Part shown: positions 4,255 to 54,032 of the stretch, one piece after another
How positions within the stretch are numbered: position 1 is the first letter of the stretch
How the letters are laid out: each line of letters starts with the position of its first letter
NCBI GenBank assembly: GCA_001662655.1
Contig: KV460236.1
Length of the DNA stretch: 64,000 bases
Direction: 5' to 3' (one strand)
From: Pseudogymnoascus verrucosus
Lineage: Eukaryota
The notes under the pieces: generated by a model
What the model was told of the DNA's origin: nothing
The model's input: only the letters and a program-made list of their open reading frames with translations
Database searches by the model: none
Made by a program: the position numbers and the translations under genes

Positions 4255-6616
4255 AAGGTTTGTCGCTGTTTATGCTTCGCTCTCTCGCTCTTCCGTTTCT
4301 GCAACCTTCGATATCTTGGCCCTACCTACCTACCTCTTACGAATGCTAAGATACCTCTTCGTTTTCGACATGTCCGTTTACACAACTACACCACAACTAC
4401 GCATCGCCATGCAGGCGTCCCTCTGGACCTTTTTGTCACCGATATACCTACTTTAATGAGCGCCACTCTCTCGCATAAAAACTTCATTTGAACTACTACT
4501 ACACTTTTCGGATCATAAAGGAACACGCACACACTCTTCTCTTTTTTCTTTCTACAAAAATCTCGGGATAACCAAACCGCAGCAATTGTTCAAGTAATAA
4601 AAACCAAACCAACGCCCCTTGTGTGGAAAATTCGGGATATCGGAATTTGCTTTTTTTGCTTCTTTTTATTTTTTTGTGTACACCAACTGCTTTCACGCAA
4701 CTATGCAAGGAAAAACCCGCGCACGCCGCACGGAAAACGAGCCGACTAGGTCTTCGTTATTAGCTTCTTATGGAAAAATTCGTTTATCTAACGACGACAT
4801 CGTTCTTCTCAAGATTTGAAAACTCTTTTTTGTCTTTTGCAACAACACACAAAACTGGCCCACACTTGCCCGACACTTTGCTGGCGTTGAAAATATGGGG
4901 AGGGGGTTGGGAAAAATTGCGTATTTGGACATCCTTTTGTTGCGAATGGGATGGATTTTGTGTGACTTTTGTTTTTTGTTTTTTTGTGTTTGTGCGTTGC
5001 GGTCGTGTGCTTTTTTTGTGTGAAGATATCTGGACTGCTCTGTCTGCTTCATGGCTGCGGAAGGAAGTGCCGACGACGACTGCCACAGGGCACGACTTTT
5101 TCCAAACCTAGCCAGCCCTTGGACTTGGGTAAAGAAAATATGGGATCCAAACAGCAACACCACCACCCACAGCCAGCCATTGCCACCGTCTTCCTTCCTA
5201 CCACCAAATTGCGCGACGGGAGTCTGCACTTTTTCTTCACTTTTACGTCCCACGGGTTTTTCTTCTTCTACGCATAGACAAGGGGGGGGAAGCGTTGGGA
5301 TTTTCCCAGGATTTTTTCGTGGGTTTGCCTGGTTTTCGGAGCCGGGCTGGGGTGGAGGGTCGCGTGGGCGGGAAGGGTTAAGGGGCGGGGGGGTGGGGAT
5401 GGGGGACAGAGGGGGGAAAGGGAAATAGGGAAGGGAAGGGGGGGGAGGGGGGAATGATATGATCAACTTCGTTTGGGACTTTGTTGTTACTGTAATTATA
5501 GAAAATTAACTGAAAACTTGGGTGGGGATATGGGGATAGGGGGCGGGGGGGATGGAGAATGTTGAGAATTTTTTGATATTGATATTTGTGTTGGATGTGC
5601 TTTTTTGTGATTATTTTGTGATTATGACTGACTGGGTTATAAATATAAATGGGGTGAATAAAGTCGACGCGTGCGGGTTTGGGTAAGAGAGTATCTACGA
5701 ACTATGTCTCGATCGTCCACACTCCTCGTTTAGAAGTCATGTATGTAACACATCATATCTACGCAGCTCAAGTATACGAAATCCATTTCTCGTAAAAAAA
5801 AGTATATAATCATCAGGCATTACCCCCCCCATCCTACCATCCCAACCCAACTTCTCCCCAATTCCCACACACATAAAGAACCCAGGAGTTGAGTCCCATT
5901 TTATCCTGCATCCTTGCAAAGGTCTGAGATCTGAGATCTGAAATATAAAAAAGACATCGCGGAAATAAAACATAAACTAAGTAAGAAAAAAAAAAAACGT
6001 ATTTAATAGTAGGAAACCCCCCCCCCCCCCCCGAACCCAATCCCATCCACCCTACCACATCCAACCACCGTTCGTTCGTTCGTTTCGTGGGTATCCGCCG
6101 CTCGTAATTCGTATCGTGTCTCATCCCGCACTCGCTGTGCAGGGTAGGTAGGTAGGGTACTCGTATAAAATCGTGTGTCGAAAGTACGAAAAAAAAACCT
6201 CCATGCAAGCTTGCGTCGATCTGCAGGTCACTTGCAGGCGGGGAAGGAGGAAGTTGGGCGCAAAGAGGCACAGAGGTATAAAATATCGGGGTTGGCTCTG
6301 GGCTTCAAGTGCGTCGAGCTAATCACAGGGGGGGTGGAAAATCAGTTTTGTATTCTTGCGATAAGGTAAGAACGAACGAACTCCATACACGAGATGAAGA
6401 AATGCAGGCATGGTGATGCCGGTTGGGTAAATGAAAAGAAGATGGATAAATAAGCAGGCAGGAAGGCGTTGTGGAGGCTGGCTGGCGATGCGGGTGGCGG
6501 CGCGAAGTATGTGCTAGGGTATCATTGCTTGGAGTCCCTGACTCCATTCTGAAGAAGAATGCGTTGTATTGTAAAGTTTCATAACGTCGTAACGGTCGTG
6601 TCAAAAAAAGAAGTCT

Positions 6617-8965: not shown

Positions 8966-11188
8966 TATGGCGACGGATATGTTAAATCAGAACAACGTCT
9001 GCGTCAACACCTGGAGATGAAGTTTGCGACGAGCTTTGGGTAGCAACCAGGCTTTGAACCCTGTGCGATGAGTAGATTGTAGAGCTCACTATAGATCCAA
9101 GGCTATATTGCACTAGGGAATATGTTGAAGCCAAGAGCGATAGTGAGTGTAAGCAAGAGAGCTAAGATAGCAGTGAAGTTGAAGTATAAGGTGGCGATGA
9201 TGATGATGATGATGAATAGAAAGTTGTTACTGTGTGGGAAGGGTTTCAGGTTATCCTGTAGAAGGCTGGCGGGGGTGTTGGTTGGAGGGGTAAGTCGGCA
9301 CCCAGTGAGTTAGCTTGGCAGAGAGATGGGTGAGTGAGCGAATAATAAAGTGGAGGGGTTGGAACGAGGGGCATTAATTATACGCTTCCTCCACTACTTA
9401 TGCAGTAGTGAGAGCGCATAGAAAGCGCCATATAATTTGTTACTCGTTGACTCGTTGATATATCATGGGATTCATGCACGTAACGTCCAGTGGCTGAGCT
9501 CCAAGAGGCCCTTTTGCGCCTATTAGGCCTCTTTACCCCTACATTTCAGTCGACGCCCTTCACTGAAAACACCCTTCTGCGCACTAAATGTGGCACTGCT
9601 AGAGGTACCCGCCGCTACTTTACTTACCTTTACTGATGGTTTGTTGACAGACAGCGACGACGCAAGGTACGAAAAGTGCTTCTAGCATACGTCCATGGCT
9701 CTGTCATGCGAGCTAGCATAGGGGAAAGTGGAGTTCTAGGAGTCAGGCAGGCATCAAATATCATCCTCCCCAGACACAATATGGTGCAGAAGTCTCGTCT
9801 GACAGAGTCTAGATGCTAGAAAAATAAATACCTCGTGAAAGGATTTGTACCAGACGACGAGGCTGTCTCTGGCTGTCTCTGGCGTGACATCCCATACGAT
9901 GGGGGGTGTGCCGCATAGGGCGCCTGACAACCCCTTCACACTCCACTAGTCGACCACAACAGCTCAGGATCCGAGAAATTGTTGGAGAGGATGCATATAT
10001 CCCTAAGACACAGCCACCAGCTGGAAGCGCACACAACGCGCACAGCGCCACAGACATGCAGCATCCTACGGTCTGTATGTGGCTGGTCTGGAAGCAGGGG
10101 AGATATCTATATGGATTACCTCTCGGTGACATCGCCAAGAGGTTTCCCCTTCATCCTACCATCGTTCTATTCACTCTAGGCAGCTAGCCGGAGTTGCCGC
10201 TGCAAGTACCTGTCCGTGGCATCTACGAGCTATGTTCCTTTATATGCAGCCTCTCATCTTTACGTAACGGGTCTTCCGGGCTCACAAGTTTGTGAAATCC
10301 ATCAAGTCTCCACCGCCTACCGCCGGATTGTCTAGAGCGTCTCCTAGGCGCTTGCCCGACGGGAAATTCGGAGTGATTCACCGAGAAATAATATATCGAG
10401 ACCCGAATATCGTGAGATCAGTGTTCTATTTTAAAGATCCCCATCTCCACGAGTGGATACTACCTGATTTTCCCTCCAGGTAACGTAACAAGAATGACGA
10501 AAGGGCAGGATTGACATTCCAGAACACTATATCCCACTTCTACCTGGTGGGGGTTTCGTCATGGGCGGGCAGAGACACAGCCACAACCCGCGCCGGCGCC
10601 ACATCCTCGACGCCACACATATGAAAACGACAATAGATTTCATAAATACGTATCACGTGATATACGCGCTTGTGAATTGCCGAGATGTTCCACACCAAGT
10701 TCCAACTTTCCCCATGTACCGGCGCTAAGAACCTTGCAATGCATACTATGCTTAGCTCACAAGCAATGGCAGAGCAACGAAGTCGGGGATGTCGATCATG
10801 GAGCCCCAGAACTACGATCTTCACGATTTCACTGCTTCAATAATGTTGAATTGCCAAACGATCGGCCCACATAGCGTATCTGCTACAGGTTTTGCCCGTT
10901 GATCCGTCGGACCATATCCGTTCACTAAGGCAATCCTTGCCCGATAAGGGGTACATGACGACAAATCATCATCATACTCTATTGTATCTTTGATATATGT
11001 CATACTATCATAATGATAAAAATGCTATCAACAGATTAGTAAGAATGATTTAATATAAGGGTAGGAGTCCTCATTTCCAGTCCTCTCTTCCATTCGAATT
11101 TCAAAAGTTCAAAAGTCTTGTCTACATATCACAACTGCTCTTCATTTTCCACGCCTCAAAAATCTTAATAAGCTCCACTCACTTCAAA

Positions 11189-11766
11189 ATGCAATTCCAA
11201 TACTTAGCCGTCGCCCTCCTCAGCGGCCTTGCCATCGCTACCCCAGATCTCCAGCAGCCAGAGAAGCGTGTTGAGTAAGTTCTCACCCCCTTCACCAAAC
11301 TCCCACAAAGCAATATCCTAACATCCCTCCCAGTATCGTCGGAGATGTCACCTCTGCAGCCGGCGGAGCAGTCAGCAGCGCCCTCGGCGGCATCACCAGC
11401 GCCGTCGGCAGCATCACCGGCGGCGGCTCCTCCGCCCAGGAGACCGGCGCCTCTTCCGGCAGCGAAGCCTCGTCCACCGCCAGCTCCGAGGCATCCTCCT
11501 CCACCGGCAGCGAGTCGTCGTCCGCCACCGAGTCCTCCTCCACCGGCAGCGAGTCGTCGTCCGCCACTGAGTCCTCCTCTACCGGAAGCGAGTCGTCGTC
11601 CGCTACCGAGTCCTCCTCCACCGGCAGCGAGACTGGAGCCTCCTCTACTGGAGCCTCCTCTACTGGAGGAGCCGGAAGCTCGGGCACCAGCACCGGAGGC
11701 GCCATGAGGACCGCTGCTCCTATGGCTGGTCTCTTGGGTGCTGCTGGATTTATGCTTGTGTTGTAA
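11189..11766 (+). CDS. Small secreted Ser/Thr/Gly-rich, probably GPI-anchored cell-wall protein (~172 aa); exons 11189-11274, 11334-11766
   Basis: Signal peptide MQFQYLAVALLSGLAIA, KR site, intron GTAAGT..CTAAC..CAG, S/T repeats, hydrophobic tail GGAMRTAAPMAGLLGAAGFMLVL*; correct frame absent from ORF track. Confidence 0.85.
11494..11632 (+). repeat. 39-bp coding minisatellite (~3.5 copies, SSSTGSESSSATE)
   Basis: TCCTCCTCCACCGGCAGCGAGTCGTCGTCCGCCACCGAG unit repeated with synonymous changes. Confidence 0.85.
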
Positions 11767-12088
11767 GCGGCGCAGTTTTTCGCAGTACGAACGAGTCCAG
11801 TTGAGGAAAAGGATCAAACTGGAAGTTATATATAGCTCGGCGCCCGGTAATAGATTATTGGTATAATAATTAATTAGTTTAGAGTAGATTAAAAATCAAC
11901 GTGTGCATAATAAGTACTGTTGTATAAATTGTTCAGGCTTGCTTTCATTTGGAGTGATAAAAATATGTCCCATGTTCCAACGCATTACGTGCATTTTGAT
12001 ATGCATGGTATGTCCGGACACGAAAAGTAATAGCTCCCTCATATTGTTGAAACCCCAAAGGAACAACCTTAAGGCCATCTTCCCGCCT

Positions 12089-13431: not shown

Positions 13432-13945
13432 ATGAGTTCTTTTGGATCACCTGGTGGGGGGAAGATGAACACGAGGCCCACGCCGTAAGTCTTTGTGCGC
13501 GGAATATATTGGCTAGTTGGAGTTGGGCTTGAGGGCTGACTGATCGTGTAGTCCGGAACGTGGAAGCTTCCCTCTTGATCATGATGGTAAGTCACCTCTC
13601 TGTCTCACGACCGACCCATTGGGTGGGAGGGGGATATTATGCTAACATCTACTTTTTAGGGGAGTGCAAGGACGTTATGAAGAAGTACCTGGGGTGTATG
13701 AAGAGACTCAAGGGCATGAACGACCCCGAATGCCGAAATCTGGCAAAGGCGTACCTTACGTGCCGCATGGACAAGTGCGTACCCCTGATGAGATACCGAA
13801 TATACTGCTTGGGATAGTGAGCTGATAGCGATGTAGCAACCTGATGGCGAGAGACGAATTTAAGAATCTGGGGTTCGCCGATGAACCACCCAAAGACAAT
13901 AAGAAGGGGGATGGGAAAGAGGAGAAGAAGGAGATTCTGTGGTAG
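13432..13945 (+). CDS. COX19: Cytochrome c oxidase assembly protein Cox19 (twin CX9C), 4 exons
   Basis: MSSFGSPGG..PTP|PERGSFPLDHDG|ECKDVMKKYLGC...ECRNLAKAYLTCRMD|NLMARDEFKNLGF. Confidence 0.93.
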
Positions 13946-14396
13946 ATACGGCGCCGGAGTGGCGCAATGTGGGGAGTGTGAGATATGTATGAGATATATG
14001 GAGAAGGTTGTGAGATATGTATGATATTAGCAAGAAGGGCGTTGAAAAAGCATAGCAAGGGGCGTTGGTTGGAACAACCAGGAAGCATAGCTAGTTGCCG
14101 GAAGGTATATTGCGGAATTATATAATACCCATTCCACTTTCATCCATAATTTTTAAGATGCTTTGTGACTTTCATTTCTTGCATTCTGCACAATCATATA
14201 AGTTATTGGATGTGCAGTGTCGAGCGTCTGGATTGAGGTTAAATGACTTGCTTTAGAGCCATGTATCAACCAATTAGGCGAGGAGCGCAACCACCAGCGC
14301 GGCTACAACAGTTGCACTTCCCATGCATCCCCCCCATTGAGATAACCAGTTTCCGAAGGTCAGCTAAAATGCGATAGACGGAAGCAAGCCTAAACC

Positions 14397-16742
14397 ATGA
14401 GTGTAGACTCAAGCCTGTTAGGCGTCGCCTTGATCGTGCGGTCCAAAGACGGTCCCCGCTTCATCTTCCATTACCCTCCACGTCTAAAGCCCAATGAACG
14501 TACCATCCGGCCTCCTTACGGCACGGAGCTCGACCCCACCGCGCCAGAAGACGCCGATGACATCGAGCCCGATGCAGACGATGAGCTTGATGATCGGGAT
14601 TACTCTCTGTACAACAGCCTCGAAGGGCTGGGGCTTGGTAAGAAATCACGTCACGTGAACCCGTGGGAAGGAGACGACCATTTCGAGCTCCCAGATGGAC
14701 AGCATGTGGTGCCTTGGGAATATCTGGATTCTTTCCATACGAAGGATTTGGCGAGCATTTTGACGCCGGCAAGGGCGTTTCATAAGAGGTGTTTTGAGTT
14801 GACGCTTGATCCGCTGACGTTTGTGACGTATCCCATGCATATCCGTGAGGATGGGCGATGGAAGAAGAAGAAGAGGGAGAAGAGGAGCCGTAGGCGGAAG
14901 GAGGAAGAGGAGAGACAGGAGAATGGGTCTATTGCCGATGATACGGCTATATCGGAAAGCCCAGCTGAGACGTCCGGGGTGGAGGACGACGCGAGAAACG
15001 TCAGGAAGCCGAAAGGGACATCTTTCGCGTCTGACGACACTAATGATGGCGGGATGACTATGTTCAATTTGGTGTTTATTATGAATCCGAAGACGACAGA
15101 GGCTCCGATGAGGGTTTCGGATATGTTTGAACATGTGGCGAAGGATATCAACAAGGCCCTGAGATATGCCCAGAACTACAGTAATTACGTCTGGAAGGAA
15201 TCAGAGCGTATATTGAACTTGAAAGAGAAGGCAAAGGAAGAACGTCGTCCAATGAGCACTCTCTGGGACACTATTTTACGGAAGTCTTCGCTGGCGCAAA
15301 CGATGAAAACTATCTACACGTCAATATCCAACAATAGTATTGCTGTCGTCCAGCTGCTCAGCGATCCACCCGTGCGGCTCTCTGTTCAGATACCCAAACC
15401 ATACTTTCTGTCAATGCTGCCCGAGTTTGACGAGCCTTCCATGCCAGGCTTGTGGATCACGACTGCCAACTTCTTTGGCGACCAGGAAAATGAGGACGAG
15501 ACCTCACTTCTCTCCAAGCACTTTGCTCTTCTACTCCTCGATGACGAGGACAAAATCATTGCAGATATCCAAAGCGATGGCGGTGAGCTCACCGGGCCGC
15601 TACTCGAATACCTCAAGATCGTGAGGCCTACTCTCTCATTCCACCAAACAGCACAGCAGCATGCAATCTCTCTGAATGATATTCGCATTCTCGCCCAGCA
15701 TCTCATCTACCACCGTCGCGCCATTGCAGTTCCTCCGCTCCATCCACGAGACACCTACATCCTGTCTCCTAATTGCCCCATGGCGTCTCTCCCTCAATTT
15801 TGTGCCCTCTGGTCACAGAAGTTCCCTCTCGCACCGCCTTTACCTACCTTCTTGAGCGCCCTCAGCCATGCCCCGAGACCCTACAAAACCTTTATACCCA
15901 CCAAAACACATAGGCCAATATATACGGCGATGCTTGCCTTCCTTCTTCGCCACGGATGGGCAACTCAACTCCGCACGTTTGCCTGGATTATCGCGTGGCC
16001 GGAGATCAAATATGAAGTGCAACATGCCCTTGACGGCGCCGCTATTCGAGACGCACATGCTGAAGCAATGGAAGAACCCAAAGAAGATTCTACCGCGGCT
16101 ATCCCTAAGACTCCAACGCCAGCTACACCATTACCCACCTATCCGCATGCACAGGCAGCACCGTCAACGCCGCCAATAAATTCCGAGGCAACTGCGGAGA
16201 AGGCTCGCGTAAGGAGGCTTAGAGATAAGGCCGTCCAGGATCTTGCTGATTTCAATGCGAAACCAAAGCCAGAGGCGACGAAAAATCCAAGTCTGAATAC
16301 GGCACAGCATTTGGTGAGGATACAGCCACAGCTTATCCTGGATCCGATGAGAGCTGAACACGTGGATTCTATGTACCTATCTGCTATCGCAAATCGTCTA
16401 GAGGGTGGCGGGCCGGAGGATGAATCCAAAGGCGCTGGGGCCGGCAGGACTGGCACAACTGCCGCAACTGGGCCGGTTGGTAAATCTGCAGTTGTTACTG
16501 GGAGCTTAGCACAGTCCGTTGGTGCTTTGGGGACATTGCCTAAGTTTGGAGGTATTGGGGCTGATGGTAGCGGTATCGGCGGCCTTAAGAAAGATAAGAA
16601 GCGCTTTTTGAAATGGGCTAAGTATTTTGATGGCAGGACGAGTATTGAGCGCATCGCGCTGTTGGAGGGGGTTCAGAGGAAAGAAGTGTGGGCGCAGGTC
16701 GCGGCCTGGGATGAGTATTTACTGGTGGTTAAGCATTGGTGA
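14397..16742 (+). CDS. NPR3: Nitrogen permease regulator 3 (SEACIT/GATOR1 subunit)
   Basis: LLGVALIVRSKDGPRFIFHYPP N-terminus, MFNLVFIMNP, YFDG..IERI, C-terminal VVKHW. Confidence 0.9.
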   Translation: MSVDSSLLGVALIVRSKDGPRFIFHYPPRLKPNERTIRPPYGTELDPTAPEDADDIEPDADDELDDRDYSLYNSLEGLGLGKKSRHVNPWEGDDHFELPDGQHVVPWEYLDSFHTKDLASILTPARAFHKRCFELTLDPLTFVTYPMHIREDGRWKKKKREKRSRRRKEEEERQENGSIADDTAISESPAETSGVEDDARNVRKPKGTSFASDDTNDGGMTMFNLVFIMNPKTTEAPMRVSDMFEHVAKDINKALRYAQNYSNYVWKESERILNLKEKAKEERRPMSTLWDTILRKSSLAQTMKTIYTSISNNSIAVVQLLSDPPVRLSVQIPKPYFLSMLPEFDEPSMPGLWITTANFFGDQENEDETSLLSKHFALLLLDDEDKIIADIQSDGGELTGPLLEYLKIVRPTLSFHQTAQQHAISLNDIRILAQHLIYHRRAIAVPPLHPRDTYILSPNCPMASLPQFCALWSQKFPLAPPLPTFLSALSHAPRPYKTFIPTKTHRPIYTAMLAFLLRHGWATQLRTFAWIIAWPEIKYEVQHALDGAAIRDAHAEAMEEPKEDSTAAIPKTPTPATPLPTYPHAQAAPSTPPINSEATAEKARVRRLRDKAVQDLADFNAKPKPEATKNPSLNTAQHLVRIQPQLILDPMRAEHVDSMYLSAIANRLEGGGPEDESKGAGAGRTGTTAATGPVGKSAVVTGSLAQSVGALGTLPKFGGIGADGSGIGGLKKDKKRFLKWAKYFDGRTSIERIALLEGVQRKEVWAQVAAWDEYLLVVKHW

Positions 16743-40374: not shown

Positions 40375-40900
40375 AGTGTCGGATGGGGATATTGGGGGCT
40401 TCAGTGTTTAATCTTGTGTTGGAGGCTGGGATGGGAGTATGTTTGTTCCCAGGGTTGAAGGCGTGTTGGCGTGAGGAGTAGGACGCGAGGCATGGGAGGT
40501 TTTGACGCGTCGACACGTGACCTGAGCCCAAAATGTACATAACGTCATATACCCTGGCCGCCTCTCATTTAAACTTCATTCTTTCACCATCTATACTTGA
40601 AGTATATTTGAAAAATAAAGAGCGAGAAGAGTGAACTTACCCATGTTAGTAGCCGCAAAAATTAGCCGTGTTCAGCTGATCTATTACGTCGAAAACTGGG
40701 AGCCAGAGTTGGGTTAGCTAAGGTAAGACGCATAGTCAGCTTACCTATCGTATTACCTTCCCTATTCAAGGTTGAATTAAGTTATGTAGTACATAGATGA
40801 TACACCCTGTTCGTAATCTGATTTTACATCCCTAGACATTTGTCTCCCTCTCACGCCAACACGGCCTAAGCCTCAAATCTGCAAGTGTAAGGCAATCATC

Positions 40901-42094
40901 ATGACATCTAACCTCGCTCATATCGCCAGCAAAATCCAACAGCAGGTCTCAGAGCTGCAACCTAGTAATGAAGAACAGCGATTGAGCCTTCTTCAGTCTG
41001 CCCGTGCCCTCGTCAACGAACTCGAAAAACCCCATGAACGCATCATGCGCATGTGCTATCATGAGAGCGCAATCTTCATGGCAACAAAAGTTCTCATTGA
41101 CCTGGGCATTTTTAAAATCCTCACAAAGACCTCCGAGCCAATAACCGCATCTAAGCTAGCCCAAGATACTGGCGCAAACCGTGCTCTTGTAGAGCGTCTC
41201 CTTAAGCACGTTGCAGTCGAGTTCTTCGTGGATGAAGCCGGGCCAGATACATACATTGCGAACGACATCACACGGTGCATTGCATCATCTGGGGGCCAAG
41301 GAACGATCGAGGATACATTCCAGATCGTCCGCGTTGCCAACGCGGTTCCTGACTTTCTAAGGGAAACCAACTACGCGAATCCGACGGACAAGGATAAGAC
41401 TACGTGGAAGTATGCGTACAAGACAGACCAGCACTATTTCGAGTATGTGAATAGTCCTGGGCGGGAGCGGAATCTAGAGGCGTTCTGCAATCATATGGAA
41501 TTCAAGACGGTTGGGCTAAAGTGGTATGAAGTGCCGGAGATTATGGAGGCTGCGCTTGGGGATGCGAAGGTTGGAAAGGATGATGTCCTGCTTATTGATG
41601 TTGGAGGCAACGGTGGACACGACTTAATCGGCTTTCATACAGCACATCCGTCCATGCCAGGCCGCTTGATCCTCCAAGACCTTCCCGCAATCATCCAATC
41701 CCTCGACTCTGCTGCGCTAGCCCAGCAGGGCATCGAAGTCATGGGTCACGACTTCTTCACGTCCCAGCCTATCCACGGTGCTAAAGCGTACTATCTCAAG
41801 ATGTGCCTACATGACTGGCCGAACCCGCAATGCATTCAAATCCTCTCACAACTAAAGCATGCCCTGAAGCCCGGGTATAGTAGGATCTTGTTGAATGAGA
41901 TTGTGGTCCCGGACGAGAAGGCAGGATGGTTTGAAACTAGTGTGGATCTGCTAATGATGCAGGTGCATTCAGCGCAGGAGCGGAGGGAGCGAGAGTGGGT
42001 AGCTTTAGTGGATGCGGTAGATGGGTTAAGGGTTAAGCATATATGGGATGTGGACGGGGCCGTGGAGAAGGTTATCGAGATTGAGGCGGTTTGA
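40901..42094 (+). CDS. SAM-dependent O-methyltransferase (fungal secondary-metabolite/Methyltransf_2 type), intronless
   Basis: LLIDVGGNGGHD, LILQDLP, GHDFF, YYLKMCLHDW, AQERREREW. Confidence 0.92.
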   Translation: MTSNLAHIASKIQQQVSELQPSNEEQRLSLLQSARALVNELEKPHERIMRMCYHESAIFMATKVLIDLGIFKILTKTSEPITASKLAQDTGANRALVERLLKHVAVEFFVDEAGPDTYIANDITRCIASSGGQGTIEDTFQIVRVANAVPDFLRETNYANPTDKDKTTWKYAYKTDQHYFEYVNSPGRERNLEAFCNHMEFKTVGLKWYEVPEIMEAALGDAKVGKDDVLLIDVGGNGGHDLIGFHTAHPSMPGRLILQDLPAIIQSLDSAALAQQGIEVMGHDFFTSQPIHGAKAYYLKMCLHDWPNPQCIQILSQLKHALKPGYSRILLNEIVVPDEKAGWFETSVDLLMMQVHSAQERREREWVALVDAVDGLRVKHIWDVDGAVEKVIEIEAV

Positions 42095-42411: not shown

Positions 42412-43637
42412 CTATTTCGTCATCCCCTTATACGCCACAATTCTCCTATCCCCCGCATACTCGGTCAGGGTATACCACTCTCCCCTCGCCTCATGATAAC
42501 TGAGATCCTCCGCCCCAGCCGGAAACCAGCCTTTGGCCAACTTCGCCGCGTTGCCCGGAATCCAACTCCACAAATCCGCAGCAGGCGACGCGCTGCGCGC
42601 AAAATAGAACTTGCCCTTCCATGACATCCCGCCTTGCATCTTGAGGATGTTGATGCACGATGCCCAGGTCGCGGTGGCAACATTGGCCGTTGTAGCGAGC
42701 TTGCGGGTCGTGTAGTCGAGGGGGTAGCGGATGACGCGGATGGGCGTCTTGACATCGGTTTCTTGGTATTCGCCGATAATGAGACTGTCAGGGGTGGTGC
42801 TGCGGTCGAGAGAGACCCAGGAGTGGCGGAAGGGGGAGTCGGGTTGTTTGGATTTCCAGTCGAATTTCCTGTCAGGCGGTCAAAATCAGACTCTGCGCCG
42901 ATGACCTGTGGGAATCGGGAAGAGTCAATGACTTACCACATCTGAGGAAGCACGTATGCGTAGTTGTTGGCAGAGTATTTCCCCGTCTTCGGATCCTTCC
43001 CCACTCTGTCCCCAGCGCCGACAGCCCACATACTACTCACGTTGAACACGCGGAGTCCATTGTCCGTATCCACAACATACAGCGCATCACCATACCACAT
43101 AATTCCTCCCGCGTGCACCGAGACCTCTTTGAAATCATCATCCGCACTCGGCTCTACGAGCAACACATGGCGATACTTATGCGTTGAGCGATCAATAAAG
43201 CTGATCCGTGCCTTCTTCTTCTCGTTCGCCGCGGCCTCCTTCTGGTACCAGCTCACGGCCCAGACGGAATGGCCTTCATACTTCCCATTCCCGAGAGCGT
43301 CACCAGAGCTGCTGATTCCCTGGGGATAGTATTTCTTCGTGTCGTCGTCGCCGTCGTTCCAGCCCCAGCTCTCGACAGGTTTGCCGTTACCAGTTTTTGG
43401 GGCTTTCTTGACGAGTTGTCGGTTTGCGTTTGTGAGGACCTGGGTCATGGAGACGGTCTTGAAGTGCTTAGAGAGCTTGGTGGTGTGGGTGTTGGCGGAG
43501 TAGGTGAGCTTGAAGTTTTTGGCGTCGAGGAGGGGGAGTTTGGCATCGTTGCGGTTGCAAGTTCGAGGATCTGCAGCTGCGACAGCGGCGGTGGCAAGGA
43601 GGCCGAGGGTGAGGAAGGAGGGAACAATCATCTTCAA
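42412..43637 (-). CDS. Secreted protein of unknown function resembling actinobacterial secreted proteins; 2 exons (intron ~42869-42936)
   Basis: Signal peptide; YYPQGISSSGDA, VSWY, YRHVLLVEP, HAGGIMWYG, YVLPQ|, SLDRSTTPDSLIIGEY, EDLSY. Confidence 0.8.
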
Positions 43638-45231
43638 GAATGGAATGAGTGAAGATTTAGTTTGTAGATTGGTGGATATTAGAGACAGGTTTTTTTTTGT
43701 TTCGACGGGTCCTTATGAGACTTTATAGAAATATTGTTACAAGGCCTAGAGCGGGTTTCTGATGCCTACCCCCTCAGCCTCGTAAAAAACATACTGGATC
43801 TTCGCTCATCTCATCCTTTAAGATTATTGTCCACTCCCTCCTCACCCCAGCCTCCCTCCTACCGCCGCTCTTGCAGCCGAAAATCACCGAAACGGTCCCA
43901 AACTGTCTCTCCTCGACGCCACACTTACCCACAGTGCATATCCACGAGGCAAACCGCGGGAAGCTATACGGCGCTAGTAATGTAGATCATCGAGCTTACT
44001 TCGATGTCGTGTTCTTAAAATAAGACATGGAGCAATAATCCCACCGCCTTACACCCTAAGCAACCCCCTAGCTCAAAATTAGTTACTGCCCATGAGAATT
44101 TGCTATGCAGCTTGTGCAGATTGAAATTAGGTCCACCCTTTGGGAACAGGGGTTTCGTGCCGCCGTCATTTATTCCGGGAATTTCTGGGGGGAGGTCGTA
44201 ATCGAGGGATCTGCTTCCCCGCGCACGCTATGGATAAGCAAGAAGGACGGAGCACGCGATCAAAAATACGATCAAAAACAATATACAATGTTGCGTTCTC
44301 ACCACATATCTCCTTCGGATATCAACTGAATACTTTCTAACTCTATCTTCAAGCAAGACTAGAGATGTTGAAGGCTGTACATATTCGGAGAAATGACACT
44401 ATTTTGACATTAGCGTTCACAAGCTTCCACCTGTCAAATCCAAAATATGCCTTGCCAAGCCTTCTAAGCCACCCGCCCCTCCATCCATAAGCCCCCTGAA
44501 TTCTCCCGCCGCCCTCCCCGCTTTAAGTCCAAACAATATTCAACTTTCTCACATGAATGCTGGCTCTTATAATTCACCAAACCCGAAGCCGACCTGGTTA
44601 TGATCCATGTTCTCCCTCGAGCACGAGTCTCTACTAAATCTTTAAAAAGTCAACCTTTCATCGTTTCTATCACTACGTAGAGCATATCAGCAGAGCTTCT
44701 GAGGTTGTCTACCCTCTTTATGCAAAGCTAAGAGCCCTCTTGAGAGTAATTCACCGACCAAATAACCCGAAAGTGAAAGCTTGGCTCTCTATCCTACTTT
44801 CACTCATGGTTCGCCCTGTCCACCCTGCTCACCCTGTTCACCCTGCTCACCTATGGCCATCTATATGTCACGGTGTAACGTGTCCCAAGTTGAGACTACA
44901 TAGAACACTGGCACTGGTGATACCTAATTTATACTCCAATCGTACCCTACAACGTCCCCCACAGACGAAACCTGCCCCAAGGAATAGGTTTCACTGTTCC
45001 GTGGAATACCATTTGACCATGACAACGCTGACCATGATTACACGACAAAGAGGGTCCCGATGGGTTATCCTGACCCGCCTGTTAATGTTGCCCTTTCTAG
45101 CATAGGTAGTGAATGAACGTAGATCAAGCCTTTATCATGACTATTAAGGGTCTAGAAACCTGGCTTTAGTTCAACCCTCGACTGCTATCTAGAATCATTC
45201 TGTACCCACTTAATTATCCCATATTCTCATC

Positions 45232-46100
45232 ATGCATATCTCAACCATGCTTACTCTGGCCGTTTCGATTTTAGCTGCAGGGACCACTGCCATTACCGGC
45301 GATGAAGGAGTTGCTGAGTTTCAAAAGTTGGCGACTGCAATTACAGCATATAATAATTAGCTCTCGATGGTAAACGAGGGAAATGGACTATATGAGGGTT
45401 AAGTAAGTGGAATTTGCGCATTCCTTCGTAGATTTTATGAAAGTCTCAATCAACGAAAGTTTCGTATTATAGAGGGCTTCTATAGGACTGTTTAAGTTGA
45501 GGGATGCCTTTGGAGCCAGTATTGCGAAGTTTCAGGAAGGCGCCGACCCTGAAGAACCAGTCAGTATTTTAACCCCGAGGGATTAGGAATCCAAATTCCC
45601 CAACTGTCTTTCTAACTTTCGGGTGTCTCTAGCCACAGGAAGTTTCGGACGCTGACCGGAGCCGAATGCTAGCGGAAGCAAAAACGGTAGTTAACGCCAG
45701 CGCCCGATCTTACGGACAGTTTCTAATATATGGTATAGTTTCTCGATCTTGTCGGTAACACCATGAGCGAGCTTTATAGAATCCGTGACATTACAACGGC
45801 AACCCCGCATCACTATGATATCCAGAGCGCACTTGAACCTATCGTATCGGAAGATATTTCATCAAGCACATCACTCACAGGCGTAAGTACGAATATACCG
45901 TGCTCAACTGCCACACTGCGCTCTCACTAGACTATGCAACTAACAATAAGCCTCTACAGATTTATGTAAAGCTCCAAGTCTGGCTACCCCTGAGTAGCCT
46001 GCAACAGGCATCAGATTTGTTTAACCCACAAATAAACTCTCTGCCGTCGCAAGGGCCTATAGAACACTATGAATGCTATTCGAAGGGTTACTTCAGCTAA
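45232..46100 (+). pseudogene. 5-exon small secreted protein gene (~198 codons) with two premature stops in exon 1
   Basis: Exons 45232-45402, 45473-45559, 45633-45686, 45739-45882, 45960-46100, all phase 0 with GT..AG; signal peptide MHISTMLTLAVSILAAGTTA; TAG 45358, TAA 45400. Confidence 0.75.
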
Positions 46101-46440
46101 AAGCGCTGCTCTTATAGCTATGATTAAAGAACAGAAAAATTGCATCAGAGGGTGTATTATATTGACACGCTCAGTAGGGTTTTTACGGGTTTCCCCTAGC
46201 TGCTTCGGCCACAATGGGCGAGCACAAACTGTCGCGAAAATTCAACTTGGATTGGAGTTTAAACTGCTGCTGCCTGAATTGCGCATCGTGGGTTGCTCCA
46301 ATTCAAGGCACATGACATGCTTTTTTACATCGTCGTAGCAGCCCCATTCAATGAAATGGAGGGGGTTGCAATGTATAATTTTCAACCATGGTTTAGAAGG
46401 TCCTAGAACGAGAGCAAGTATCCAGTCGATGGCACCCATC

Positions 46441-48328
46441 TCATCCCGAACCTGCCATATTCTCATTATTCCACCCTTCCCCATCATCACCCCCCAATAG
46501 CCCCACCCCAAACTCCCCATCTCCACTCACCATCCCCAGCATCTCCTCATCCAAGAGCCCGCCCCAAAACTCCCGCTCTCTCACCGCTAATTTCCGGGAC
46601 GCGAATATCTCCTGTGCCGCACCTTTCACCTGCCCTTGCGCTTTCCGAGCAGAGGGCCAGACAGCAGCTATGGTTTTGAGAGCTCCGGTATATAGACGGA
46701 TTTGCTGCTTGATCTCCTCGTTCTTCGCCACCCCGTCCAACCCAGCCCAGCGCGACAAATCAACAATAGCACCTAACGTAACGACACAAGTAAAGAAGTG
46801 CGTGTGCAACGTCAGAGGGACGGGGAGGGCAATGAGTGATGCGATGTCGAAGGCGGCTTGGACTACTTTTGCAGCGTGGATATTATACGTTGGCCCGCCA
46901 GTGGTGGGCTGATGGGGAGCGCAGGACGTGATAGTTTGTGTAGGTGCAGTGTCTAGGTGGGCATGCGGTCTATGGAGAAGCAGTGTGGACCTGTTTGCCA
47001 GAATCAGTTGGGGGGCTTAACGCATGGTTTAACTGGCAACTTTCGACTTGACTTCTAGATTATGTAGGGAGACGTAGTATGAGGGAGTGGTTATGGTGTA
47101 AAAGGCTAAGCACTTACGCGTATGTAATCATATGGGCCTGGAATAGCATCTCGTCCACTCTCCCATCCTCGACTACAATCCTCTTTGTAGACGGGAGATG
47201 GAGGCTCCAGTTCACGAGGTAGGCATCCGTCTTCGCGATTAGCGGGTCGTCTGGGAAGATGGGCTTTGGGATGGCGAGAATTCGCGCGAGATTGGAGATG
47301 GCGGCAATGCGATAAGTGAAGGAGGAGAAGACGGTGTCGTCGTCTGAAAATTCTTCGTCGTTGAATTCTTCTAGAGAACGAGGAGAGGGTATGTTCTAGG
47401 GCTGTTAACCGACCGCCGGCGAAGGGGGGATATTAACTACTAACTCCAGATATATAGTTCCCCTCCTCGCAAGGAAGTCCAACTCCCTCCCCGACCCCAT
47501 CTAATCTAACAGAGCTAGCCTGATGCACACCAGCAACCATCCCATCTAGCACCACGCACTCCCACCACGTCCTGCGCCAACTCTCCTCTATCACACTATT
47601 TCCGCCGCCATTCCTCTCTGCGAACCACTCATGCTGCATGCCGATCTCTAGGGCAACATCTACCGCCTGATTAAAGAAGGCTAGGGCGCGTTTTAGTTCC
47701 CCGCTTCCGTCCAATCCGATAGCGATGAGTAGGTTGGCCTGCACAGCGTAGCCATCATGTGGACAGAGGGGAGAAGAGATCTGGTGGACTGCTTCGGCGA
47801 GGAGAAGGGGAGTGTGAGAGGGCTGAATGTGGAAAGAGGTGAGATAGGTGATTGCGGCGAGGAGGTGTGGAAGGGGGCGTAGGGAGAGGAGCGTGAGGAG
47901 CGCGGGGAACGGGGGAAGGAAGGGGTGGGCCGGATGGATGTAGTGGTAGTATGCTGGGAGGTAATCGGTGGTTGCTGCTATGGGCTGGCATGTAATGTCT
48001 GTGTTAGTCAGGGGAGAGTTAGTGAGGCGGGGGATAGTAGGCGACCCCAGGGTTATTGTAGGAGAATTAGCAATAGATATGGCTAGACTCGCAGTCAGTA
48101 CTGTAATCAAAGACATTATGAGCACCCACTTGGCGAATTTACTCCTCTAACCCTTCCCCTCTTCCTATACCCCCGCCGCGACTGAACGAAGCTGCACTGT
48201 AGGTCCTTAGACACGCAACGCGCGCACGGCTTGACGCCGTCGCATTTTAAGTGTCGAGAACGGCAGGCGACGCATGCGGCGGCGGCGGGGACGACGTGCT
48301 TAGTCTGTTCATCGGTAGGGGTGTTCAT
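46441..48328 (-). CDS. Zn(II)2Cys6 transcription factor with fungal-TF middle homology region, ~4 exons
   Basis: ACVACRSRHLKCDGVKPCARCVSKDLQCSF; YYHYIHPAHPFLP; EESWRRTWWE; MLFQAHM; LLLHRP. Confidence 0.92.
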
Positions 48329-48830
48329 GTTATTGTGCTACGTTTTGTGTTGCGTAGGGTGTAAACATGGCTGAAGTGTGATGATGCTAATCTATAGTTT
48401 TAACGTTTAATGTTTAATCGCGATGGTGGCGGAGATACCAATAAACATGTATAAGTACAAGCGGAGCCTATTTAATATAGTGGCGAGTGATGTATAAGTA
48501 CAAATTTATATATGTACGTGCGGGGACTATTATGGTCCCCGATCTAGCCTATGCGGATAAAAGTGGTTCCTTCCCCATTCTAGTCCCCGAGGTCGCCGAT
48601 GAATTTCCATCCCTGTTTGTACATACGTTATGTTAATGCCATCATTTTTATTCGGGGCGAAATATTGTGGACGAGTCGAATTAACACATCTTATTACTAT
48701 AATGCAAGATAACTTATAATGGGCTTAAATAAATACTAATATCAATATCGAGACTAAGCATGACTGGATTGAAGTTGTCGGCCGTACCTGGAGTTAGGTT
48801 AGCCCCAACGTCACGACGACCAGCTTAGGT

Positions 48831-48883
48831 CAACTCGGGGACCTCAGCCCAACTCGGGGACCTCAGCTCAACTCGGGGACCTT
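48831..48883 (+). repeat. 19-bp direct repeat x3 (CAACTCGGGGACCTCAGCY) in TF/ABC divergent promoter
   Basis: caactcggggacctcagcc caactcggggacctcagct caactcggggacct. Confidence 0.9.
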
Positions 48884-49023
48884 GACAGAACGAAATCTCT
48901 ATCCTCGTCCCCGTCTACCCTTCCATTAGTAAATCCTTCCCAACTACTTTCACCTATAAGAGCCATGGCCGCCAGCCTCCTATCCCACCAACACGCTAAT
49001 CCCTATACTCCCATCGTTAAGCC

Positions 49024-51152
49024 ATGGCAGCCCCTCACCAACGGAACGGACATTATGTCCAGCAACAGGATACCTACTCCCCAGATCTCGAGCGCCGACC
49101 TACTGACGCGCACCTGCGGAATACTACAGTGAAGAATTTTGCATGGCAGGACATTACTGTCACCGTCAAGGACAATAAGACGAAGGAGCCCAAGGCCCTC
49201 TTACAGGGCGTTAGCGGGATTGTAAATGCAGGTATGTACCTCGTCTTGTCACTTAACCTACCACCTCCAACACACATACCCACGCTCCTAATAGCACAAT
49301 TTCCACTACTAATTATAACTTCCAGGCGAAATATGCGCCCTAATGGGCCCCTCCGGCTGTGGCAAAACCACCCTCCTCAACGTCCTTGCCCACCGCGCCG
49401 CCGCCTCTGGAGCCGACACTACGGGCTCAACGCTCGTGGATGGCGGCGCCGTGTCGACCGAGGCGTTTCGCCGGATGAGCTCATACGTTGAGCAGGAGGA
49501 TGCGCTCATCGGCTCGTTGACCGTGAAGGAGACGATGATGTTTGCTGCGAGGTTGGGAGGCGCGAGGTATGATTGTTCTGTTCTATAATAAGTTACTTGA
49601 TAGGCGATGTTGATATGTCTTCTACAGTGGATTGTCTAAATCAGAGAGAATGGATCGTGTAGATGGCCTGCTCGATGCATTCGGACTCCGTAACCAAAGC
49701 GATACGCTCATTGGGACTCCGATTAGAAAGGGGATCAGTGGGGGTCAAAAGAGGCGAGTCAGCGTTGCCAGCCAGCTGATCACAGGCCCGAAGCTGTTGT
49801 TCCTGGATGAACCGACTAGTGGCCTTGATTCCGCCGCCAGCTGGGAGGTAATATCGTTCATCAAGAGCATTGCGCAGAAGAACAATGTAAGTTGCGACCC
49901 CGACTGCTTTCTCAACAGTATTTAGTACTAATACACTGGGTGATAGTTGATCGTTATAGCCTCCATCCACCAGCCCTCCTCTTCCACCTTCCGCCTCTTC
50001 GACAAAGTCCTCCTCCTATCCTCCGGCCGCCCACACTACTTCGGCTCTGTCCCCGACCTAGCCCCTTTCCTCGAGACGATGGGCCACCCCGTCCCCCTCC
50101 AAACCAACACCGCCGAGTTCGTCCTTGAGCTAATGAACGTCGACTTCGCGCCCGACCAAGACGCCGCGAGGGCACAGCTGGACGGAATGCAAGAGGCATG
50201 GGAGGCGTCTTCCATGTCCGCAGCTATCGGGACAGAAATCGGAATCGTCGCCCAGAAATGCAACAATAGTAAAACAGCATCCGACGCCAAAGGCGCCCGT
50301 GCAAGCTTCCTCACTATAGTACTAGCGCTGCTACATCGCTCCTTCATCAAGAGTTATCGCGATGTTGTCGCCTACGGCATCCGCATCGCGATGTACCTCG
50401 GTCTCGCCATCATGATGGGCACCGTCTGGCTCCGCCTCGGAGACGACCAGCGCTTCATCCAGCCCTTCATCAACGCCATCTTCTTCGGGAGTGCATTTAT
50501 GTCCTTCATGGCCGTCGCCTACGTGCCCGCCTTCCTCGAGGACCGGGCGACGTTTGTAAAGGAACGGGCGAATGGACTGTATGGCGCGCTCCCATTCGTT
50601 GTGGCGAACTTCCTCATAGGGCTACCATATTTATTTCTCATCACAGTACTGTTTAGTATTGTGGCATACTGGTTGTCGGGGTTTGAACCGACAGCAAATG
50701 CATTTTTTACTTGGATCATGTGGTTATTTTTGGATCTGCTGGCTGCGGAGAGTTTGGTAGTGTTGGTGTCGTCCTTGTTTCCTAACTTCGTCGTGGCGCT
50801 CGCGCTGACCGCCTTCGCCAACGGACTCTGGATGAGCGTCGGCGGCTTCCTCGTTCCTCCCACCGTCCTCAATGTCTTCTGGTACTACGCGTTCTCGTTC
50901 ATCGACTACCAGCGCTGGGTGTTCCAGGGCATGATGGTGAACCAGTTCCAGAACCAGACGTATGGGTGTGGCGTGGGGTGTAATTGTATGTACCAGACTG
51001 ATCTTGCGTCCCAGTGTCGGATTGAGGGGACGGGGATACTGGGTCAGTATGGGTATGCGACTAATCGACAGGGACGCTGGGTGGGGATCCTTATTGGGAT
51101 TATTGCCGGATACAGAATACTCGGCTGGCTCGTGTTGGTTTTCCGGAAGTAG
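49024..51152 (+). CDS. ABCG-type half transporter (NBD-TMD), 4 exons
   Basis: Walker [10 protein letters not shown], signature [10 protein letters not shown], Walker [20 protein letters not shown]2 membrane domain with ~6 TMs. Confidence 0.95.
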
Positions 51153-51743
51153 GAGGGGAGGAATTTATGGAGGTAATGTTTAAAAGTTTTGTGAGTGAGT
51201 CGTGGTATGATAATGGGCTGGCTAAATCTACTCTGTTGTTTATATTTTCTTCACGCAAAATAGTCTCGCGTCTGTGTTAGTAGCTCGTTACGCTCAAGAG
51301 AGGAGTCTGTACCAAAAATTCAACTTGTATTGAAATTTAAACTGCCGTCACTTGAATCGTAGCTGTATTTCCGCATAGATTGTTCATGGAGCCCCTGAGT
51401 ACAATCTTTCCTACCGGGGTTTCACTGGTACCCTTCGTTGATGATTGGCGACGCTAGTCATGCATGATAGATGCATAGAACGGTGTTGGATCCAAAATTG
51501 GAAGGCGATGAAGCTTCAAATCCTTCGCCGCCACTATGTAGGGTATTCGCCGCGGCGCATACGTGCAGGGAACATGCTAGCTGCAGTACTGTCGGGTTGG
51601 TTTACGCTTGGGACCAGCATACACTTTGAACATTGGGATTCTTCTGAAGGCTTCATTCTTCCCTATAGTTCTACCTTGACAGTTGAATTCTTCAGAATAG
51701 ACCTACTTGCTACTAACCAACGCAAGAACACCCATCAATCATT

Positions 51744-54032
51744 ATGAATCACGCACAAGCATCTATTAGACGTCCACCGCAACCCCCTATCAACTTCGCC
51801 GTACTAGTAGACCCGGCCTCAGTGCTCCAGGCCAGCAACAAACTATGTGAGAATCTACAACAATTCGTAGACAATCTGGTATCTACGATCACCCCAGCAA
51901 AGGCGACATTTGACAATGTTGTCCTACAACTTCTACAGCACGAGAATGAGATGCAGCGGACATCCAACCTCATCACCATTCTCTCCCTCGTCGCACCTGA
52001 CACAGCACTTAGAAATGCTGCGGCCGAAGCTTCGGAGAAGGTTTCTCACTGCTTGATGGATTGCAAAGAGAGCAATGAGGATTTGTTCCGTCTTATAGAC
52101 GCTGTGTACCAGCGACAGAAAGATGACCAGACACTCGACCCTGAGAGCCGCAAGGCCCTCGTGGAGGAGAGACAGAGTTATTTCCGCAAAGGCCTAGGCC
52201 TATCAAACGATCCCATAGAAGAAGACACCAGCGGCAAGGGTGAAACTAGCTCTAACTCCGCGACGTTCAGATATAATACGCGCAGGTTACAAACCATTCA
52301 ATCAGAATTCCTCAAAAACCTAGATGAAAAACCTCATCACATCTGGCTTACCGGCGCCGAGCTCACCGGAGTCCCAGAAGATGCACTTTATGGACTTGAG
52401 ACTGGGACTGGAGAGTTTGACGGCAAATTAGGGCTGGATCTGAATGGCATGCAAGCTAGATGGATGTTGACTGTTGCGAGCTCGCCGGCGACGAGGGAGA
52501 AGATTTATTTGGAAAGTAGACGGATTGTAAGTTGGCACAGTCCAATTCTTTTTTTCTGCAACTGGTCCCTCTGGGGGTGTTCTCACTTTCATTCGATTTT
52601 GTAGTTTGATTCTAACACTTCACAGGCAAAAGAAAACATCCCCCTCTTCCACGAAGCAATCCATCTCCGCCACCAATCCGCCCTCCTCCTAGGCTACCCC
52701 AGCCGCCTCGCCTTCAAAACCGAAACTACAATGGCCAAAACCTCCTCCGCCGTATCCGATCTCCTAACTCCCCTCCGCGATCTCATCATTCACCACTTAC
52801 CAACCGATCTCTCCAAGCTGATGGACCTAAAAAAGCTCGATCCCGCCGCCCAGGACCAGCCAAATGCTGATGTGATACTCTGGTCCGATATCCCGTATTA
52901 CACCCGTCTTTATGAGGAACAGAATTACGCAGTCGACCAAGCCCAAATCGCCAAATACTTCCCCCTTTATGAGACGGTTTCGAAGATGCTGGCTTTATTC
53001 GGCAAACTTTTCGGCTTCGAGTTTATTGAACTCACAAACCGTGAAGCCAACTCAGCTGCTGAGCAGGTGAAGGAGGGGCTCATATGGCACCCCGACGTCC
53101 ACCTCTACAGAGTCTACGACGACCCCCAAGCCGGCGGGGAATTCGCAGGATACCTCTACCTCGACCTACACCCCCGCCCCAGCAAGAGCGGGGGCGCCCA
53201 ATGCCGCCCTCTGCAACTAGGATTCTCCCTCCCAAACGGCCAGCGGCACCACCCCTCACCCGTCTTACTTACCAACTTCCCCAAACCCTCATCATTATCG
53301 GGGAAGTCCTCGCCGTCCCTACTGCAGCACTCCGACGTAGTCCTACTCTTCCACGAGCTCGGACACGGGATACATGACCTCTCCGGCCGGTGTCGATACT
53401 CTCGTTTCCATGGCGCGGAGACGGTGGTGGATTTTTCGGAGGCGCCGTCGCAGATGTTGGAGAATTGGTGTTGGGATGCTTGCGCCCTCAAAGTTTTATC
53501 TGGGCATTATGAGACGGGGGAAGTGTTGCCGGATGAGGTGATTGACTCGCTGTTGAGGACTAGAACTGTTCTTTCTGCTGCGAAGATGATGCCGCAGCTG
53601 AGGATGACGGTTTTTGATGGGGCTGTGCATTCAGAAGCTGTGGAGGGGGGAGAAGTTGACGTAGCTAAGATATATGCGGAGTGTGATAAGCTCGGTGGAA
53701 TTAGGAGTATTGGTGAGGAGTAAGTACCCCCTATCGTTCTCACACCGGAGCAAATTGATGAATGAAACTATAGATACGGATACACAACATACAGACACCT
53801 CTTTACCGGAAGCGACGCAGGGATGTACGGGTATATATGGTCGAAAGTTCTAGCTATGGATATGTTTGATACGGTCTTCAAGAAGGATCCTCTAGATGGC
53901 GAGGCGGGGAGGAGGTATAGGCGTATGGTGCTTGAGAAAGGGGGGAGCCAGAATGAGATGGAGACGGTTGTTCAGTTTCTTGGTCGGAGGCCGACTTCTG
54001 AAGCTTTTTATAAGTCGTTAGGTCTGGAGTAA
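51744..54032 (+). CDS. Metallopeptidase M3 (thimet oligopeptidase/saccharolysin-like), 3 exons, no signal peptide
   Basis: YLYLDLHPRPSK, LFHELGHGIH (HExxH), DFSEAPSQMLENW, YGYIWS, FLGRRP. Confidence 0.92.

Follow-up and report, generated by a model that had tools for sequence, protein, structure and literature searches.

Zinc-cluster (Zn2Cys6) transcription factors recognize DNA by reading CGG triplets. In Saccharomyces cerevisiae, Pdr1 and Pdr3 act on PDRE sites located upstream of PDR5, SNQ2 and PDR3, the last of these being autoregulated, and dimers of Gal4 occupy CGG-N11-CCG, in which the spacer length is fixed, in the upstream activating sequence of the divergent GAL1-GAL10 promoter. Here we describe a promoter region that can be compared with these systems. 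It lies in a stretch of 64,000 nucleotides (64 kb) of Pseudogymnoascus verrucosus (contig KV460236.1 of GenBank assembly GCA_001662655.1), which is called the window throughout this text, and it separates a gene for a Zn2Cys6 regulator from a divergently transcribed gene for an ABCG half-transporter. Seven copies of the heptamer CGGGGAC are gathered in this region in two groups, one ahead of each gene, and this clustering, together with what it might mean for the control of the two genes, is the subject of the present analysis.

Closely related arrangements have been described in filamentous fungi. According to passages of PMC6414702, AtrR of Aspergillus fumigatus binds its own promoter as well as tandem sites upstream of abcG1, the recognized element (ATRE) being CGG(N)12CCG. 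The alleles TR34 and TR46 are duplications in the cyp51A promoter that multiply SrbA and AtrR sites and raise transcription, as reported in part of PMC9239056. Monomeric binding is also documented for zinc-cluster proteins. Pho7 of Schizosaccharomyces pombe is a monomer on DNA, where it covers 14 bp of an asymmetric site that has a single CGG, and AlcR of Aspergillus nidulans is monomeric on WGCGG (both from sections of PMC6265462). TerR of Aspergillus terreus, which has no coiled coil, is likewise monomeric and shows higher affinity when a T precedes the CGG (from a section of PMC4360782). Concerning the transporters, fungal ABC-G proteins of half size go by the name of WBC transporters, and a survey of 2010 (PMC2848647) gave no known function for the related fungal groups.

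The region between the two start codons of the locus (48328 on the minus strand and 49024 on the plus strand) comprises positions 48329–49023, i.e., 695 base pairs (bp) with 44% G+C, and it presumably works as a shared bidirectional promoter. By searching both strands of the window, CGGGGAC was found in this region at 48521(+), 48535(−), 48583(−), 48836(+), 48855(+), 48874(+) and 48907(−), which we number as sites 1 to 7. A first-pass annotation of this DNA had listed exactly these seven positions and strands in an intergenic span of about 695 bp, and had pointed out an inverted pair CGGGGAC-N7-GTCCCCG and a 19-bp tandem repeat holding three of the sites. All of this is borne out by direct reading. 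An eighth copy missing from that list (48286–48292, plus strand) falls within exon 1 of the regulator gene, over codons for Val-Val-Pro-Ala-Ala.

Sites 1–3 form a group located 193–261 bp before the ATG of the regulator. Sites 1 (+) and 2 (−) make up the palindrome CGGGGAC-TATTATG-GTCCCCG (48521–48541), which can also be written as CGG-N15-CCG and which is placed 193–213 bp ahead of the ATG of the regulator. A minus-strand TATAAA lies 11 bp from it, the group being upstream of this element in the direction of the regulator gene. Site 3 (48583–48589, minus strand) overlaps a CCGAGG and is contained in 48577–48601, a diverged copy of the surroundings of site 2 (48529–48553). The second group, sites 4–7, is found 111–188 bp before the ATG of the transporter and upstream of a TATAAG at 48955. 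It includes the tandem repeat at 48831–48882 (plus strand), for which Tandem Repeats Finder gives 2.7 copies of the unit CAACTCGGGGACCTCAGCC with a period of 19, 96% matches and a score of 97. Each full unit carries one CGGGGAC, so that sites 4–6, all on the plus strand, lie 144–188 bp ahead of the transporter ATG. The group is completed by site 7 (48907–48913, minus strand), at 111–117 bp from the same ATG. Between the two groups there are 246 A+T-rich bases in which the motif does not occur.

The 7-bp core is invariant in the seven copies, while outside the tandem array the information content of the flanks drops sharply to the value that so small a set of sequences would be expected to give. 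Five copies read TCGGGGAC, and a T precedes the CGG in five of the seven. Every copy starts with CGG, and seven of the 15 CGG/CCG triplets of the intergenic region belong to the heptamer. The start-to-start spacings within the groups (14 and 48 bp; 19, 19 and 33 bp) are irregular, and the fixed half-site spacing and orientation of dimeric type is not seen: there is one inverted pair with N15, the tandem direct copies have N16, and the rest follow no regular distance.

It is the clustering, and not the abundance of the motif, that stands out. Over the whole window there is no excess of CGGGGAC: it occurs 12 times, shuffling predicts 9.13, and 12 or more are obtained in 19 of 100 shuffles. Variants with one mismatch are not enriched either (185 found, 189.5 expected). 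However, eight of the 12 copies are located within 628 bp, and the remaining four (at 14452, 21429, 50049 and 55330) are all inside long open reading frames (ORFs) with Pfam matches. Thus, every non-coding copy of the window is one of the seven in 48329–49023, and no other promoter in the window has one. From the four copies present in the other ~63.4 kb, about 0.04 would be expected per 695 bp, the same order as the ~0.1 proposed in the first-pass annotation. Moreover, CGGGGAC is the most clustered 7-mer in the window once low-complexity words are set aside. For each of 150 simulated windows of 64 kb (order-3 Markov), we recorded the highest number of copies that a complex 7-mer attained in a span of 400 bp. 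This number was three in 34 runs, four in 114 and five in 2, and none reached the seven observed here; the observed number becomes five when the tandem repeat is collapsed to one copy.

The regulator gene occupies 46441–48328 on the minus strand, its coding sequence running through 48328–48130, 48082–47445, 47395–47118 and 46990–46444 before the stop codon (46443–46441). The exon junctions were obtained by tblastn of relatives and enumeration of GT..AG pairs, and the spliced frame is open over 554 amino acids (aa). Exon 1 matches Zn_clus (PF00172) with E=2e-10 and 41 bits for a cut-off of 21, the six Cys (residues 19, 22, 29, 35, 38 and 45) being spaced as CX2CX6CX5CX2CX6C, and it also matches the DNA-binding domains of Put3 (1e-7), Pho7 (2e-4), Gal4 and Leu3 in PDB. 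Relatives of the protein carry a precomputed PF04082 label. Of the 20 residues that follow the zinc cluster seven are basic, and a stretch rich in Pro, Ser and Thr comes after them. The 90 residues past the last zinc-binding Cys contain 12 Pro, with a longest run free of Pro and Gly of nine residues and a longest Pro-free run of 20. Judged from this Pro/Gly content, the regulator appears to have no room for a Gal4-type coiled coil behind its zinc cluster, and for this reason we infer that it would bind as a monomer.

The transporter gene is found at 49024–51152 on the plus strand, with coding segments 49024–49231, 49326–49566, 49628–49886 and 49947–51152 (stop included) that encode 637 aa. Its junctions were read by eye, and the spliced frame was checked to be open. 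ABC_tran matches exons 2 and 3, followed by ABC2_membrane on exon 4 (E=3e-35), and this order identifies the protein as a reverse-topology half-size ABCG transporter of WBC type. The pair named in the first-pass annotation, a Zn2Cys6 factor and a divergent ABCG half-transporter, is therefore upheld by Pfam matches and open spliced frames in both genes.

The closest relatives of both proteins are in Pseudogymnoascus, the comparison covering 48 matches for the regulator and the 120 listed out of 1,933 for the transporter. Within this genus, at least seven strains or species have an orthologue of one protein or of both, the cluster representatives being from different strains. For exon 2 of the regulator, identity is 97% with one Pseudogymnoascus sp. 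protein, 87–89% with two others and 62% with a protein of Cephalotrichum gorgonifer, and at most 46% with the remainder. For the transporter, relatives of 618–640 aa with the same Pfam set are 63–93% identical; its last exon reaches 79–93% identity to Pseudogymnoascus proteins and 63–71% to half-transporters of 618–656 aa across Aspergillus, Penicillium and other Leotiomycetes. These identity levels suggest a lineage-restricted regulator next to a member of an old and conserved transporter family.

Two side observations concern these relatives. The public models of the closest regulator relatives (P0121–P0124, 398–498 aa) start at or after the equivalent of position 48116 and do not include the zinc-cluster exon, which is intact here (region 48083–48328) and is carried by the more distant relatives P0125 and P0128, so that those models are probably mis-annotated at the 5' end. 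Besides, the best match outside the genus for both proteins among the matches listed is a Sordariomycete, C. gorgonifer (P0005, P0124), with 77% for the transporter and 62% for the regulator. It outranks the other Leotiomycetes, which do not exceed 71% and 46%, respectively. This ranking may reflect gene transfer or differential loss.

When the locus is set beside the known systems, AtrR/ATRE offers the nearest parallel: a Zn2Cys6 factor goes together with an ABCG exporter (abcG1 = cdr1B), and candidate sites occur in the promoter of the factor itself as well as, in tandem, by the transporter. In contrast with AtrR, the ATRE pattern is absent here, AtrR is not encoded beside its targets, and abcG1 is a full-size PDR transporter while the one described here is half-size. 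With Pdr1/Pdr3 the locus shares zinc-cluster regulators and several copies of a short CGG-containing element in ABCG promoters, whereas PDRE (of the type TCCGCGGA) has no match here, the Pdr targets are full-size, and the genes of regulator and transporter are not neighbours. As in GAL1-GAL10, where the sites of one zinc-cluster factor serve two genes, and in promoters that a pathway-specific regulator shares with a divergent target gene, several candidate sites are contained in one bidirectional promoter; unlike those of Gal4, they comprise a single inverted pair (N15) and are otherwise irregularly spaced.

The likeness to AlcR, Pho7 and TerR lies in the several sites per promoter with one CGG each and in a protein that seems to lack room for a coiled coil, an element also absent from those three, with a domain that matches Pho7. 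The T before CGG in most of the sites recalls the preference of TerR. However, CGGGGAC differs from the sites of these three factors (WGCGG, TCG(G/C)(A/T)xxTTxAA and TCGGHHWYHCGGH), the three factors act on genes of metabolism or biosynthesis and not on a transporter partner, and monomeric binding at the present locus would be a matter of analogy. The transporter itself agrees with fungal half-size ABC-G proteins of WBC type, with the nucleotide-binding domain preceding the transmembrane domain and a length of about 620–640 aa. The resemblance between the 19-bp repeat and TR34 of cyp51A, in which a head-to-tail promoter duplication multiplies a candidate binding site (19 bp × 2.7 here), is only formal, TR34 being a documented polymorphism with a measured effect. 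By analogy, the arrangement may work like the known circuits of zinc-cluster factors and ABC transporters (Pdr1/Pdr3-PDRE, AtrR-ATRE), although motif, half-size transporter, adjacency and the likely monomeric mode are different.

Taking all this into account, we think that the copies of CGGGGAC are plausibly, if somewhat short of probably, cis-regulatory sites, the CGG of which would be read by a protein of the zinc-cluster type; the adjacent factor is the simplest candidate for this role. One bidirectional promoter would contain a cluster of the same element before each gene, and recognition by the Zn2Cys6 protein would most likely extend from the CGG triplet over the remaining four bases of the heptamer. 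By binding its own promoter, the adjacent factor would sustain positive autoregulation and would induce the ABCG half-transporter at the same time. It might bind single asymmetric sites as a monomer, in the manner of AlcR, Pho7 and TerR, and such binding would explain why the heptamer appears in both orientations and at irregular spacings and not as fixed-spacer pairs. On the transporter side, a recent 19-bp tandem duplication would have lifted the number of sites from two to four. A switch formed by factor and exporter, supposedly ligand-responsive and with a binding site legible in the DNA, had been put forward in the first-pass annotation. The zinc-cluster/ABCG pair, the motif starting with CGG and the two gene-proximal groups agree with part of that proposal, but the motif matches none of the known zinc-cluster sites that were scanned.

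A more specific version can be formulated, which we consider rather unlikely in its entirety: TCGGGGACY would be the site of a monomeric factor devoid of coiled coil that autoregulates and switches on a WBC-type ABCG half-transporter, as a private two-gene module in Pseudogymnoascus whose sites were doubled on the transporter side by the recent 19-bp duplication. If true, the module would be a natural counterpart of TR34 outside the clinical and agricultural azole setting, and would provide a first regulatory handle on the uncharacterised family of fungal half-size ABCG proteins. More generally, real sites would give a hypothesis for a new zinc-cluster specificity, consisting of one asymmetric site of 7–9 bp probably read by a monomer. 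They would also make the locus a convenient system of just two genes in which the export function of a half-size ABCG transporter of fungi can be addressed, and would document, for a fungus living wild in soil or caves, how tandem duplication in a promoter adds binding sites. Current understanding is left unchanged, as pairs of regulator and transporter with repeated CGG motifs are familiar; the value of the locus is that of a testable lead.

Several observations weigh against reading the heptamer as the target of the adjacent factor. In 48329–49023 there are no matches to PDRE (TCCGYGGR), CGG-N12-CCG (ATRE), CGG-N4-CGG (Tac1-type), TCG-N5-CGA (AflR-type) or TCGG-N3-CCGA (GliZ-type), and searches of the literature by title and abstract found neither a published binding motif equal to the heptamer nor a link between it and a zinc-cluster factor. 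The GGGG core would suit a C2H2 zinc-finger protein as well. The match of Fungal_trans (PF04082) on exon 2 of the regulator alone is weak and at threshold (23.7 bits for a cut-off of 23). In C. gorgonifer, regulator and transporter have their matches on contigs that differ in length (2.46 Mb and 1.15 Mb), so that they are apparently not linked there, and the pairing may not be old. Finally, sites 2 and 3 belong to a diverged 48-bp direct duplication with 19 of 25 bases identical (76%). Because of this and of the three tandem copies, the strict count of independent copies is four, a number that 116 of the 150 simulations reach for some 7-mer.

These last figures lead to the alternative that best survives, in which local duplication (the 19-bp tandem, the 48-bp direct duplication and the palindrome) produced the cluster as a neutral side effect, and the heptamer is the part that the copies have retained in common. 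If four copies are taken as independent, the clustering statistic is unremarkable, and further site pairs are alike besides sites 2 and 3: sites 1 and 3 have 13 of 15 bases in common, and sites 3 and 7 have 14 of 18. Short tandem arrays are moreover common in the window, and another promoter contains a cluster of its own, formed by TGAGATA. Against these points, the core is identical in seven of seven copies with flanks near background outside the tandem array, and the copies lie on both strands in two groups 246 bp apart, one before each gene, an invariance and a distribution that, as sequence patterns, count against duplication acting alone. Nor does the window contain any part of the intergenic region a second time. 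We regard this alternative as doubtful, but as one to be taken seriously. It also bears on the earlier claim that the four copies outside the repeat exceed expectation: the clustering is indeed above the chance models, but the independence of the copies was overstated, as two of the four share 19 of 25 bases.

It is also conceivable, but in our opinion unlikely, that the sites are functional and bound by a factor encoded elsewhere, such as a zinc-cluster regulator of xenobiotic or stress responses or a C2H2 protein on GGGG, the adjacency being incidental or the regulator itself being a target. That the sites are clustered and have a sharply bounded core speaks for function, but not for the neighbouring protein in particular. 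When site 1 is read as GCGGGG, it fits the CreA-type pattern SYGGRG, but it is the only one of the seven copies that does so, the others having T or A before CGGGG, and the AGGGG stress element is absent from the intergenic region. On the transporter side, a TTAGTAA that is presumably an AP-1/Yap1-type site suggests that further regulators might act on this promoter; it is present in a single copy (48926–48932), 92 bp before the transporter ATG and between site 7 and TATAAG, and does not exceed chance. In favour of the neighbouring protein, a motif starting with CGG in the promoter of a zinc-cluster gene is a classical signature of autoregulation, as illustrated by AtrR in the cited passages of PMC6414702.

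We judge it highly improbable that the region is the remnant of a mobile element (with the arms 48534–48554 and 48823–48843 as terminal repeats) or a structured RNA or DNA hairpin, since, although both clusters are connected by two inverted pairs, I1 with 76% complementarity over 21 nt and I3 with 81% over 16 nt, most of the complementarity is the heptamer itself, no target-site duplication was read at the ends of the arms, and there is no second copy in the window, no Rfam match and no notable fold (z=−0.5). In this respect, blastn-short of the intergenic region against the window, run with dispersed repeats and miniature inverted-repeat transposable elements in mind, returned, apart from the region itself, a single chance match of 13 nt. 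Rfam had no match at E≤1 in 44000–52000, there was no tRNA, and the DNA around the palindrome folds no better than shuffled sequence.

The intergenic region contains some other elements. A candidate TATA box for the regulator, TATAAA at 48505–48510 on the minus strand, about 177 bp before its ATG, comes from a TATAWA scan, and a candidate one for the transporter, TATAAG at 48955–48960 on the plus strand, 64 bp before its ATG, was read directly. Single matches to CCGAGG, CCAAT and HGATAR are not above chance, and the consensus patterns of STRE, Gcn4 and PacC have no match in 48329–49023. Among the consensus patterns used in these scans, that of ATRE, CGG(N)12CCG, is confirmed in PMC6414702. The stretch that separates the palindrome from the regulator ATG contains ATGTATAAGTACAA, an exact direct repeat of 14 bp, at 48447–48460 and again, at a distance of 43 bp, at 48490–48503. 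Directly after TATAAG there is an upstream ATG at 48965, whose context AGCCATGGCCGCC is nearly alike to AGCCATGGCAGCC at 49020 around the main start of the transporter. It opens a frame of 55 codons (48965–49132) that overlaps the transporter start at 49024 out of frame, and it may or may not be included in the mRNA. Literature searches by title and abstract for this locus in Pseudogymnoascus (ABC transporter, transcription factor, promoter) found no report.

As regards the neighbourhood, 46 of the 90 ORFs of at least 130 aa were scanned for domains after dropping overlapping antisense frames. They include housekeeping genes (LARP1-like, NPR3, PIG-A, a DEAD-box helicase, a mitochondrial carrier, INO80F, Sey1 and RNase H2) in addition to one glutathione S-transferase (GST), one O-methyltransferase, an M3 peptidase and an aspartic protease. 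A biosynthetic gene cluster was considered as the context of the pair and rejected, as there is no polyketide or peptide synthase or other core synthase among the 46 scanned ORFs and the motif is in no other promoter of the window. The O-methyltransferase gene (40817–42094; Methyltransf_2 plus a dimerisation domain) lies 4.3 kb past the 3' end of the regulator gene, and the two ORFs between them, 42412–43712 and 44638–45105, have no Pfam match.

Short tandem arrays appear in 14 rows of the repeat output for the window, corresponding to about nine arrays, and the other local repeat clusters are short-period runs, coding repeats and the small TGAGATA cluster. The latter has three copies within 39 bp (13979–14017) and more at 13789 and 14338, upstream of an NPR3-like ORF (14394–16742). 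Nested tandem repeats with periods of 15–39 bp extend over 11367–11668, the largest having 3.5 copies of 39 bp with 92% matches, inside an ORF on the minus strand (11179–11895) without Pfam match. Long runs of C/G homopolymer at 5284–5530 account for 16 overlapping CCCCCCC words within 700 bp.

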